A stretch of 64,000 nt of DNA, taken from assembly GCA_963727525.1 (NCBI GenBank), contig CAVSGO010000008.1, positions 1 through 64,000 of the forward strand, written 5' to 3'. Of this stretch, positions 58,778-61,395 are shown piece after piece (position 1 is the stretch's first letter; each line of letters starts with the position of its first letter). This DNA comes from an uncultured bacterium. GTDB taxonomy: Bacteria > Krumholzibacteriota > Krumholzibacteriia > LZORAL124-64-63. The notes beneath the pieces are model-generated. The model was not told where the DNA came from, did no database searches, and saw nothing but the letters and a program-made list of their open reading frames with translations. The position numbers were made by a program, and so were the translations under genes.

Positions 58778-59650
58778 ATGGAAACGCTGCCGACGCATGA
58801 GTGCCGGATCGCGGTGGGCGAGGTCGTCCTCTCGCTGGCGTGCCCGACGGCTGCCTACGCGGCATCGATGCGCGAGTACTTCGTCACCGGCGTCACGGCG
58901 GCGCCGCCCGACGTGCGGCTGCGTCTGGAATTGATCGAGGACACACCCCAGCGACCCGTGCCGAACTCGCTGGTGGCGACGAAGCGCCTCGCCGACGGCG
59001 GATTCGCCATCGCGGACGATCTCGTCACCGGCGCCTACGATGCCGCCGGCGGCGAGGGTTGGCTGCGCGTGCAGTGGTACCTCACGAAGGCACAGCTCAC
59101 GCGGGTCTTCGAACAGATACTCTACCAGGCATTCTATTCCGCCCGTGCACGGCGCGGCTACGACGCCATGCTGCTGCACGCGAGCGCGGTGATCCGCGAC
59201 GGCGACGGTTTCCTCTTCGTCGGGGCGTCGGGCCGCGGCAAGTCGACAGTCGCCGATTTGAGCCGCTCCTGCACCGTCCTCAATGACGAAGTGGCGCTGG
59301 TGGAGTTCACGCCGGCGGGTCCGGAGTTGCGCAGTACGCCGTTCAACGGCCTCTACCGCGACAAGCATGCGGGCCAGGCGCCGCTGCGGGCCGTGTTCCT
59401 GCTCGCCCATGGTCGCGACCATCACCTCGAGGCCGTGAGCGCGGGTGCGGCGGTAGCAGAGATCACCGCGCAGGTGATCGCACCCGTCGCGCTCGAGGAC
59501 ACCCTGAATCCCCGGACGAGTCAGCTCATGCTCGACGCGGCCAGCCATCTCGTCGGCGCGGCGCCGGTGCGGCGGCTCGTCTTCACCCCGGACGCCGGTT
59601 TCTGGCAGGCCATCGACGGAGCCTTCCCGCCGGCAGGAGGTCTCTCGTGA
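58778..59650 (+). CDS. HprK-related P-loop kinase
   Basis: GGAGG RBS; LLHASAV; GASGRGKST; LNDE; STPF. Confidence 0.85.
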   Translation: METLPTHECRIAVGEVVLSLACPTAAYAASMREYFVTGVTAAPPDVRLRLELIEDTPQRPVPNSLVATKRLADGGFAIADDLVTGAYDAAGGEGWLRVQWYLTKAQLTRVFEQILYQAFYSARARRGYDAMLLHASAVIRDGDGFLFVGASGRGKSTVADLSRSCTVLNDEVALVEFTPAGPELRSTPFNGLYRDKHAGQAPLRAVFLLAHGRDHHLEAVSAGAAVAEITAQVIAPVALEDTLNPRTSQLMLDAASHLVGAAPVRRLVFTPDAGFWQAIDGAFPPAGGLS

Positions 59651-59928
59651 TCCAGCTCTCGACCATCGCGCACAGGAACGAGGAGTTCTGCGAGCGCACA
59701 CTCGGCGACGAGACGATCTTCCTCTCGCCCGACGGTCAGCAGGTGCACGCGCTCAACGCCGTGGGCACGGACATCTGGGCCATGATCGACGGCAGCGCCA
59801 CGTTCGCCGAGATCCGCGACCGCATCTGCGTCGAGTACGACGTGCCCAGCGACCGCGCCGAGCGCGATCTCCTGGCATTCGCGAACGAGCTGGCCACCAA
59901 GCACCTCCTGATCCTGGAGTCGGCATGA
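59647..59928 (+). CDS. PqqD-family RiPP recognition element (RRE)
   Basis: 93 aa; LNAVG..IW..IDG...I...I..EYDV...AERDL..F..EL; GTGA overlap. Confidence 0.93.
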   Translation: MIQLSTIAHRNEEFCERTLGDETIFLSPDGQQVHALNAVGTDIWAMIDGSATFAEIRDRICVEYDVPSDRAERDLLAFANELATKHLLILESA

Positions 59929-60947
59929 CCGGTCTGCGCGACGAGATCTTTGGGCGCTACGCCGCCGAGAACCGGCTCCACGCGGCGATGATCGAGCTGA
60001 CGCATCGCTGCCCCTGCGATTGCCAGCATTGCTTCCTCGTGCGCGACGGCCGCGACGAGCTGACGACCGCCGAGGTGCTCGACCTGCTCGATCAGCTTCG
60101 CGAGGAGGGCGCCTTCAACCTGGGGCTCACCGGTGGCGAGCCGTTCCTGCGGCGCGACCTGCCGGAGATCCTCGCGCGCGCCCACACGCATCGCTTCTTC
60201 GTGTCCATCCTCACGACGGCGCTCACGATCGGCCCGGCGGAAGTGGCGATGCTCCAGGAGCACCGGGTGCAGCGGCTGGAGGTGTCGCTGCTGGGGGCCA
60301 CGGCTGCCACCCATGACGCGATCATGCGGCGTCCGGGAGCGTTCGCGCGCACGCTGCAAGCCGTGTCCCTGCTCGTGGCCGGCGGCCTCGACGTGCGGCT
60401 GAAGACCACCGTGCTGCGCCCCAACCGCCACGAACTGCCGGCGATCCGCGAACTGGCGCGCGGTCTGGGGGCGCACTACGAGGCCAATATCGTGGTGTCG
60501 CCCCGCATCGATGGCGACCGCGAACCCCTCGACCTCGCGCTCACGCAGGCCGAACTGGTCGACATCGATCCGTCGTTTCTCAATGCCGGGCCGATCCCGG
60601 GCGAGGATCCGTCGGCTGGAGCTGTCCTCGTCTGCAAGGCCGGCCGCACGGTGGCGGCGATCGGGCCGCGCGGCGAGGTGTATCCGTGTCTGCTCTTTCG
60701 CCGGCCGGTGGGCAACCTCCGGGAGCGATCGCTGCGCGGGATCCTGCACGATGCGCCCGATCCGTTCCTGACGGAGCTACGCGCGCTCGAACCGGCGGAC
60801 ATCACGGGTTGCCGGACCTGCGCGCTGCAGGCGCGTTGCCAGCGTTGTCCGGGCATCACGTACCTGGAAACGGGGGATGTGCGGCGGGCGTCGCCGTCGG
60901 CGTGCGCCCTCGCCGAGGGCTTGCATCAGCTCCAGAAAAACGACTGA
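59925..60947 (+). CDS. Radical SAM/SPASM-domain protein
   Basis: CPCDCQHC (CxxxCxxC); TGGEP; CKAG...GEVYPC...GNL...CRTC...CQRC...C; ATGA overlap. Confidence 0.93.
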   Translation: MTGLRDEIFGRYAAENRLHAAMIELTHRCPCDCQHCFLVRDGRDELTTAEVLDLLDQLREEGAFNLGLTGGEPFLRRDLPEILARAHTHRFFVSILTTALTIGPAEVAMLQEHRVQRLEVSLLGATAATHDAIMRRPGAFARTLQAVSLLVAGGLDVRLKTTVLRPNRHELPAIRELARGLGAHYEANIVVSPRIDGDREPLDLALTQAELVDIDPSFLNAGPIPGEDPSAGAVLVCKAGRTVAAIGPRGEVYPCLLFRRPVGNLRERSLRGILHDAPDPFLTELRALEPADITGCRTCALQARCQRCPGITYLETGDVRRASPSACALAEGLHQLQKND

Positions 60948-60972
60948 CCCCTTCGCGCGAGGGGGTCAGTCG
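60941..60972. terminator. Hairpin between the rSAM gene and the convergent peptide gene
   Basis: CGACTGACCCCTTCG-CG-CGAGGGGGTCAGTCG. Confidence 0.7.
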
Positions 60973-60994
60973 ATCTCTGATTCGTGCGTCGAGC

Positions 60995-61153
60995 CTAGCT
61001 GCAGCACCAGTGGAAGAGCGGATTCAGGAAGTGGATGGGCGTGCAACCCCCACCACCGCCACCCTCGCTACTGCCGTAGTCGCCGTATACGCCGGCCTCG
61101 ATGCCCTCGGTACGGATCTGCGGCTCCGCATACACTTTCTTGGTCGTGTCCAT
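60995..61153 (-). CDS. 52-aa RiPP precursor-like peptide (not in the ORF track)
   Basis: Manual translation: MDTTKKVYAEPQIRTEGIEAGVYGDYGSSEGGGGGGCTPIHFLNPLFHWCCS; KKxYxxPxI leader; GAGG upstream; adjacent to RRE/rSAM genes. Confidence 0.85.
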   Translation of the reverse strand: MDTTKKVYAEPQIRTEGIEAGVYGDYGSSEGGGGGGCTPIHFLNPLFHWCCS

Positions 61154-61395
61154 GATGGGTCTGCCTCTGGTTGTTTGGCCTTGGTTGTCGTGGACCGGGG
61201 CCCAAACCGATTCGATTTGTCCCGCGATTTGATGATATAGTATTATAAATCATGTATAGGGACAAAATCAAGGTCATTCTGATGGGCGAAGATCATGAGG
61301 CTTGGCGTGGCCCTTGTTCGGGTCACGACCGTCTCGAGACGCAGGGTTCCCGGTACGGGCGCTCGACGGCCTGGCGAGGTGCGGGAGGTATCGTG

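Follow-up and report, generated by a model that had tools for sequence, protein, structure and literature searches.

Linear polyphosphorylated peptides (LPP) of Bacillota are encoded by lppA-K-B-S-D-N clusters (Popov et al., Nat Commun 2026, PMC13381572). There the precursor carries the motif Y-x-x-P-x-V-L-x-H-Q-x-I-x-F-E-T-x-x-S and is served by an HprK-like kinase (LppK), a recognition element for ribosomally synthesised and post-translationally modified peptides (a RiPP recognition element, RRE; LppB), a SipW-like peptidase (LppS), an MsbA-like pump (LppD) and a nucleoside triphosphate (NTP) transferase (LppN). LppK puts several phosphates on Ser3 of the core, LppS cleaves after T-1 and the pathway is said to be restricted to Bacillota. 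HprK-like kinases are also known from paeninodin-type lasso clusters, where they phosphorylate the C-terminal Ser (as cited in PMC13381572). Here, a comparable locus is described from an uncultured bacterium of the Krumholzibacteriota (GCA_963727525.1), in the first 64,000 nucleotides of contig CAVSGO010000008.1, this whole stretch being referred to as the window. Its kinase-like, PqqD-type and radical S-adenosylmethionine (SAM)/SPASM genes, together with a small convergent gene, probably form that branch of a RiPP system specific to the lineage which includes a radical-SAM enzyme; the system would function in the manner of the LPP pathway, with this enzyme as an addition. The genes concerned are as follows.

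58778-59650, + strand: kinase-like P-loop gene (290 aa), with a predicted HprK/PEPCK-like fold, an LppK-like component
59647-59928, + strand: PqqD-type RRE gene (93 aa; PF05402, E 2e-16)
59925-60947, + strand: radical SAM/SPASM maturase gene (340 aa; PF04055, E 2e-17; PF13186, E 2e-7)
60995-61153, - strand: predicted precursor peptide gene (52 aa), conserved and convergent on the radical-SAM gene

The trio on the forward strand, which an earlier sequence-only reading of the window had called translationally coupled, has 4-nt overlaps at both junctions (GTGA at 59647-59650 and ATGA at 59925-59928), and the 52-aa open reading frame (ORF) that this reading placed on the opposite strand reads as claimed. 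The kinase-like gene has GAGGAGG 8-14 nt ahead of its ATG, and the PqqD gene uses a GTG start which overlaps the kinase stop codon.

The length of the 52-aa ORF is not significant in itself, because this G+C-rich DNA yields 103 ORFs of at least 30 aa in 10 kb; its reality rests on conservation. Within the same family, 5 of the 36 genomes searched proved to encode orthologues of the radical-SAM protein (50-59% identity), and scans of species genomes and metagenome contigs added further loci, to a total of 15. A convergent small gene of the precursor family is present in 14 of these, which are all of the loci with enough flank; at the fifteenth, the contig stops 33 nt past the radical-SAM match. 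Across 11 aligned orthologous peptides Y8, P11, E16, G21, G24, Y26, P45, F47, C50 and C51 are invariant. When 5.8 billion proteins were searched with a precursor profile, 65 matched, and 59 of these possess the whole pattern at fixed spacing. Y26 is found in all 59 relatives and E16 in 58; in the core, the Pro is kept in 57, the Phe in 55 and the Asn in 51. The invariant residues are encoded by several synonymous codons (four for Pro and four for Gly), a usage taken to show selection at the protein level, and Shine-Dalgarno-like sequences lie ahead of most precursor copies. On these comparisons the ORF is regarded as a genuine precursor gene, selected and tied to the radical-SAM enzyme. The proposal of the sequence-only reading that this peptide is the substrate of the cassette is strongly supported, and the neighbourhood search for Y-x-x-P...C-C small ORFs that it had suggested was positive at every locus that could be judged. 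That reading had also raised the possibility of an undescribed class. None of the 65 matches has a Pfam domain or a name beyond 'hypothetical protein', NCBIfam and Pfam contain no family for the peptide, and a literature search found no publication describing this Cys-Cys (CC) precursor family.

The precursor of the window is composed of these parts.

Leader: Y8-x-x-P11-x-I13, E16 and G21-V-Y-G-D-Y26-G
Linker: Gly/Ser/Glu
Core: P45-L-F47-H-W-C50-C51-S

In the family as a whole the leader follows the pattern M-[R/K]-K-x-Y-x-x-P-x-[I/V/L]-[R/K]-x-E-x-Φ-x-Φ-G-V-[F/Y]-G-x-Y-G, the linker is rich in Gly, Asp, Asn and Ser and has 5-23 residues, and the core reads Φ-Φ-N-P-[L/F]-F-x-Φ-C-C. The tails after C-C vary among the 59 relatives, with S in 21, N in 8, two to five Gly with or without one more residue in about 27, and other endings in the rest. 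The sole invariant hydroxyl residue past the recognition motif is a Tyr, which lies 18 positions after the Tyr of Y-x-x-P in 59 of 59 relatives.

The PqqD-type protein resembles the leader-binding proteins of lasso and LPP systems. A profile of 12 PqqD homologues matches the lasso protein TbiB1 (E 1e-15) and the chains 9x90_B and 9x8z_B (E 1e-10), which are PbaB1 and LppB respectively, each solved in complex with its leader (PMC13381572). The window residues N37, V39, D74 and F78 align to N33, V35, D70 and F74 of LppB, which according to the same report hold the Y-x-x-P motif by fixing the Pro kink and the Tyr hydroxyl; the offset of 18 in the LppB chain numbering is inferred and was checked on these four residues. 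With Y-x-x-P-x-I invariant and the motif-holding Asn and Asp present in the PqqD protein, the RRE-binding role given to Y-x-x-P-x-[L/I] in the sequence-only reading fits the evidence well. That reading had also called for the RRE-leader complex to be modelled. The predicted PqqD-peptide complex scored 0.46 against 0.01 for the best control, with at least 93% contact agreement between runs and a partner predicted local distance difference test (pLDDT) value of at least 52, and so passed a mark that is reached by 116 of 157 solved complexes and by 2 of 215 mismatched pairs. It lies, however, in the weak range of scores, up to 0.60, which yielded a pass for only 18 of the 157 solved complexes and also for the two mismatched pairs. 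As similar complexes have already been solved, the pass may reflect likeness to these more than binding.

The radical-SAM protein possesses the CX3CX2C motif (C29, C33 and C36, with an extra Cys at position 31) and SPASM cysteines C237, C255, C296, C299, C305, C308 and C327; the three motif cysteines and these seven are invariant in six orthologues. The solved sequences nearest to this protein are those of PqqE (E 1.6e-23) and SkfB (E 1.3e-22), and it falls under every NCBIfam cut-off. There is no fused RRE, the catalytic domain beginning near residue 20. In 13 of the 15 loci the PqqD gene immediately precedes the radical-SAM gene, and a kinase gene is present in 12. An Elusimicrobiota metagenome-assembled genome contains a PqqD and radical-SAM pair without a kinase (L064:4726-6307; 31% identity to the window radical-SAM protein), possibly the nearest outgroup of the family. 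The 47-aa ORF which follows that radical-SAM gene on the same strand combines a Y-x-x-P-x-I leader with three Cys, which would agree with Cys chemistry but is no proof of it.

The kinase-like protein was modelled with a pLDDT of 93.6 as a two-domain fold resembling phosphoenolpyruvate (PEP) carboxykinase (PEPCK), and the top structural matches among those listed are PEP carboxykinases (Z 14.5, 246 residues aligned, root-mean-square deviation 4.7); the modelled fold is taken as PEPCK/HprK-like. In 12 homologues the Walker A motif G-x4-G-K-[S/T]-T, an N/T/G-D-E motif and one His are invariant or nearly so. The NCBIfam matches are to ScmC (E 2e-7), HprK_rel_A (E 3e-5) and HprK_rel_B (E 4e-5), all far below the cut-offs, and a search of PDB sequences with the kinase profile gave generic P-loops as the sole matches. 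A tree of the 12 homologues has three supported pairs (the C8 copy of this genome with that of G019 C8, 88/89; G136 with WJIQ, 91/86; G130 with G015, 100/99) and, because it is otherwise mostly unresolved, no duplication history was drawn. Some kinase matches were flagged with internal stops; these flags probably denote the terminal stop codon, the one copy checked (G130, contig C11) reading open.

Set beside the LPP system, the Krumholzibacteriota lineage appears to have all five enzyme families, namely a putative HprK-like kinase, a discrete PqqD RRE, a SipW-like signal peptidase of archaeal type, an NTP_transf_5 protein and an MsbA-like exporter. In both systems the RRE for the Y-x-x-P leader is a separate PqqD-type protein (here PF05402, with the LppB match given above), no lasso cyclase is involved, the precursor has an N-terminal Y-x-x-P-x-[V/L/I] leader and a variable C-terminus, and a conserved hydroxyl residue lies exactly 18 positions past the motif Tyr. 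That residue is Tyr in all 59 Krumholzibacteriota peptides, whereas in LPP it is the phosphorylated Ser. The leaders agree only in Y-x-x-P-x-Φ, this being followed by ...E....G-V-[F/Y]-G-x-Y-G here and by ...H-Q-x-I-x-F-E-T-x-x-S in LPP, so that F-E-T is missing from the present family. In addition, the present system has a radical SAM/SPASM enzyme and a core with an invariant C-C, its genes are spread over three contigs in this genome and its host belongs to Krumholzibacteriota rather than Bacillota. The LPP pathway is the closest known system and a better comparison than the SynChlorMet cassette.

The leader extends well beyond the CC peptides. Its profile matched 46 of 90 genomes of this family and none of 117 from eight other Krumholzibacteriota families, while full-length CC matches were found in ten genomes only, the CC family being confined to one family of Krumholzibacteriota. 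The kinase profile matched 48 of the 90 genomes and again none of the 117. Leader and kinase occur in the same 18 genera, with both in 43 genomes, the leader alone in three and the kinase alone in five, counts which come from related genomes and are not independent samples. The remaining leader peptides agree over positions 1 to about 36, past which two more types of core are found: one terminates in ...P-x-P-[I/V]-x-x-I-x-x-L-x-L-H-M-[E/D], and the other is rich in His, Gly and Trp. By these alignments one leader heads at least three core types, as a lineage-wide leader superfamily of which the CC type alone has the radical-SAM enzyme. This genome encodes one sister precursor of each further type with the same leader, and a second cassette.

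G000:C5:612427-612579 (L018:14428-14580), + strand: sister precursor, core ending H-M-S-M-E
G000:C6:269175-269372 (L019:9176-9373), + strand: sister precursor, Gly/His/Trp-rich core
G000:C2:37850-40750 (L073:5852-8752): second cassette, NTP_transf_5 gene (- strand), then SipW-like peptidase, kinase paralogue and PqqD genes (+ strand)

The HME/HMD core is the commonest, found in about 15 of the 20 leader-only loci fetched. Directly ahead of the sister precursor on contig C5 is an MsbA-related ATP-binding cassette (ABC) exporter gene (L018:12535-14331; TIGR02204 at 455 bits, below the cut-off), and such a gene lies directly upstream of the precursor in 11 of the 20 leader-only loci, a kinase-like gene being adjacent in two. 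The sister precursor on contig C6 has a hybrid sensor kinase before it and a DUF4126 membrane protein after it, and in both L042 and L046 a precursor with a comparable Trp/His/Gly core is convergent with a kinase-like gene. Two other peptide matches in this genome (C6:115645-115767 and C6:177838-177933) were weak and without the leader and were dropped. The kinase paralogue of the C2 cassette is 47% identical to the window kinase-like protein, and this cassette is without a radical-SAM gene or a precursor. In genome G011 the set occurs in undivided form, with the transferase gene, the divergent peptidase-kinase-PqqD-radical SAM genes and the convergent peptide, and its cassette is syntenic with that on C2, with GH130 and GH38 neighbours in common.

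Among the 15 CC loci, a SipW-like peptidase gene lies directly upstream of the kinase gene in seven and beside the peptide in an eighth, and an NTP_transf_5 (PF14907) gene is divergent from the kinase gene in six. In that eighth locus the peptidase gene (L083:5-436) is on the precursor side, on the same strand and just upstream of the precursor. The peptidases score 33-49 bits against TIGR02228 (cut-off 51.85), also match SipW and have an S-G-S-M motif. The statement of the sequence-only reading that no protease or transporter is adjacent therefore holds for the window, but not for the related loci, with a SipW-like gene in 8 of 15 and an exporter by the sister precursor, nor for the C2 and C5 contigs of the same genome. 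It should be mentioned that the SipW-like genes were missed by the gene picker, which relies on G+C at third positions, and were found by family search, so other small or atypical genes may be missed also. No ORF passed this filter in L018:1-8800 (G000:C5:598000-606800), which could be a compositional island or a failure of the filter.

With these components a pathway may be proposed. The 52-aa peptide would be made from its own promoter, and its leader gripped at Y-x-x-P-x-[I/V/L] by the discrete PqqD protein. This complex would present the peptide to the P-loop kinase-like protein for phosphorylation and also to the radical SAM/SPASM enzyme, which would modify the C-terminal P-[L/F]-F-x-x-C-C, one or two thioether cross-links from the cysteines being the most likely product. 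The SipW-like signal peptidase from contig C2 would then act in trans to remove the leader, probably at G-V-[F/Y]-G. Signal peptidases follow a small-residue rule at their cleavage site, and the G-V-[F/Y]-G before x-Y-G is a plausible one. Further decoration by the NTP_transf_5 transferase (C2) and export by the MsbA-like ABC pump (C5) are possible, likewise in trans, and the order of all these steps is as proposed here. As for the phosphorylated residue, Tyr26 may be put forward as the most economical candidate acceptor, because it stands in the +18 register of the LPP phospho-Ser and there is no universal Ser or Thr downstream. The most specific form of the proposal, in which an LPP-type kinase module uses the invariant Tyr of G-V-[F/Y]-G-x-Y-G as acceptor, the CC branch is in addition cross-linked by the radical-SAM enzyme at Cys-Cys, and one leader, recognised and phosphorylated by a single set of proteins, feeds at least three unrelated cores, is tentative and rather unlikely.

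A number of points weigh against a phosphorylated and cross-linked product of an LPP-like pathway. HprK-type models match the kinase-like protein weakly, and HprK is not among the 50 structural matches listed for its model. LppK rejected an S3Y substrate (PMC13381572), which speaks against Tyr26 as acceptor, and although no Ser or Thr after Y26 is universal, 48 of the 59 peptides have one. The radical-SAM protein scores equally poorly on sactipeptide, mycofactocin and PQQ (pyrroloquinoline quinone) maturase models, and, as sequence does not reveal the type of cross-link, the type proposed is guessed from what is usual in such families. The peptidase, transferase and exporter all lie outside the window. 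Moreover, in genome G025, an assembly of 210 contigs that is 97% complete, the radical-SAM gene and the CC peptide lie beside a topoisomerase VI gene, and neither protein nor profile search found a kinase or PqqD; in G134 the kinase is on a separate contig, and no PqqD was found in the 361 nt ahead of the radical-SAM gene. The two genomes (loci G025:C20, L024, and G134:C120, L033) belong to one genus, and G134 is in 480 contigs. Because of these two exceptions the kinase and PqqD may be dispensable for the radical-SAM step, unless the assemblies are incomplete.

The last point could be accommodated if the radical-SAM enzyme alone matures the CC peptide and the kinase-PqqD pair serves the HME-type and His/Gly/Trp-type sister peptides, having become adjacent by duplication. 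Besides G025 and the non-adjacent pair of G134, this would suit a genome with two kinase-PqqD pairs and three precursors, and a lineage in which the kinase (48 genomes) and the leader (46) are far commoner than the radical-SAM gene (about ten). This explanation is nevertheless considered unlikely: the PqqD gene overlaps the radical-SAM start by 4 nt in the window and keeps its place directly upstream in all but two loci, the radical-SAM protein itself lacks an RRE domain, and both exceptional assemblies are fragmented. Another version, that of the sequence-only reading, has a paeninodin-like kinase phosphorylating the C-terminal Ser or a Ser-Ser pair. The window copy and 21 of the 59 relatives do end in Ser, the residue targeted by paeninodin-type HprK-like kinases (as cited in PMC13381572). 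The other 38 end in N, in two to five Gly or in other tails, yet loci of this kind (G015, G011 and G136) keep the kinase; the Ser-Ser pair is peculiar to the window copy, being absent from the other ten aligned peptides; and the acceptor in the closer LPP system is just past the leader and not C-terminal. Phosphorylation at these sites is accordingly judged very unlikely.

It is also quite unlikely that the product resembles PQQ or mycofactocin, staying inside the cell as a redox cofactor or a metal binder instead of being exported. The core is very strongly conserved across genera, with one copy per genome and a C-terminal modified motif, PqqE is the closest solved sequence, the MftC and PqqE models match the radical-SAM protein over its full length and there is no exporter in the window. 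The scores are far from the cut-offs, however (MftC 95.8 against 265, PqqE 94.3 against 381), the neighbourhood contains neither dependent dehydrogenases nor other cofactor genes, the leader is common to peptides placed directly behind an ABC exporter, and a leader protease of signal-peptidase type is linked. That the small ORF encodes some conserved protein with no connection to the enzymes, or is untranslated, is extremely improbable in spite of the commonness of ORFs of such sizes in G+C-rich DNA, given its linkage and constant convergent orientation in 14 of 14 loci, its conservation as protein with synonymous variation, its RRE-type Y-x-x-P motif with a matching RRE and the Shine-Dalgarno-like sequences before most copies. 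The LPP-like system with an added radical-SAM enzyme thus remains the preferred reading.

Other known systems share single features with the locus. The lasso clusters of paeninodin and pseudomycoidin (PMC13381572) have a [Y/W]-x-x-P-x-L leader, a B1-type PqqD binder and an HprK-like kinase and NTP transferase as partners. The window locus differs in having no lasso cyclase nearby, a C-terminal Ser that is not conserved and a radical-SAM enzyme instead. No lasso cyclase or B2 domains were found among the neighbour genes, in agreement with the sequence-only reading as regards an adjacent cyclase, a genome-wide cyclase search not having been made; the lasso B2 peptidase (PF13471) had no match in this 96.7%-complete genome, although control genomes did match. 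Assignment as a lasso peptide was rejected on these grounds. Maturases of sactipeptides and ranthipeptides (SkfB, AlbA, CteB, PapB and StsB) carry out thioether chemistry with RRE-dependent recognition. The window enzyme is like them in its CX3CX2C motif and full seven-Cys SPASM domain, in the Cys-bearing core of its predicted substrate (C50-C51 invariant) and in having SkfB as its second-closest solved sequence. It differs in its scores (StsB 98.8 against a cut-off of 625, AlbA 62.6 against 850), in the presence of just two adjacent conserved Cys in the core, in its separate RRE and in the kinase, peptidase and transferase set which is attached in Krumholzibacteriota.

The SynChlorMet cassette (TIGR04248-04251), to which the sequence-only reading had likened the trio, likewise joins a P-loop protein of ScmC type to a relative of PqqD and a radical SAM/SPASM enzyme, and the kinase-like protein has its best NCBIfam match in ScmC. 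The resemblance is weak, however, with ScmC at 30.6 bits (cut-off 125), ScmD at 33.2 (100) and ScmE and ScmF at 95.7 and 67.5 (400), and there is one radical-SAM gene at the window locus rather than two; the assignment was rejected. No paper on the SynChlorMet cassette was found in a literature search. Mycofactocin and PQQ were rejected as assignments on the MftC and PqqE scores already given, and none of their partner genes occur among the neighbours.

Two non-coding features were identified at the locus.

60941-60972: 14-bp hairpin between the convergent genes, assessed by folding energy against shuffles
61271-61242, - strand: sigma-70-like promoter site TTGATT-18-TATAAT, a consensus match about 90 nt before the precursor start codon

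The hairpin, at which the sequence-only reading had the trio end, covers the radical-SAM stop codon. Its centroid on the + strand has -27.8 kcal/mol (z -3.2), none of 200 shuffles folding equally well, and on the - strand -24.2 kcal/mol (z -2.0). It is a likely two-way terminator for the convergent genes; no T-run follows it, and for this reason a scan for consensus terminators does not list it. The region contains two promoter-like sites against 0.2 expected. Among the sequencing runs listed for the locus none is of RNA, and two are of DNA, with small shares of 0.06 and 0.05. Of 11 loci inspected, L009 and L030 have the strict promoter pattern at a similar distance upstream of the precursor and L008 and L032 a weaker one, and the precursor upstream regions are A+T-rich. 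The sequence CATGATTTATAAT, which holds the -10 hexamer (window 61229-61262), is found upstream of the precursor in both the window and L030, and L010 has a close variant. Its distance to the precursor start codon is about 90-110 nt, which points to a promoter that is conserved and to a long 5′ leader. The flanking genes (DUF3078, an outer-membrane barrel, a small lipoprotein, an epimerase and DUF4252) are not related to peptide maturation.

The combination of an LPP-like toolkit with a radical-SAM enzyme was not found in any paper by literature search. The LPP toolkit, called Bacillota-restricted in 2026, would be extended by the present system to a candidate phylum known from metagenomes only. 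Should Tyr be the acceptor, the product would be the first (poly)phospho-tyrosine RiPP, and a peptide both phosphorylated and cross-linked at Cys-Cys would be a product class without a described counterpart. The 59 relatives form an unnamed precursor family with a very clean motif, which makes it a target for heterologous expression with point mutants at Y8, P11, Y26, F47, C50 and C51. Finally, the leader common to three core types provides a natural test bed for how one recognition element may serve several maturation routes.

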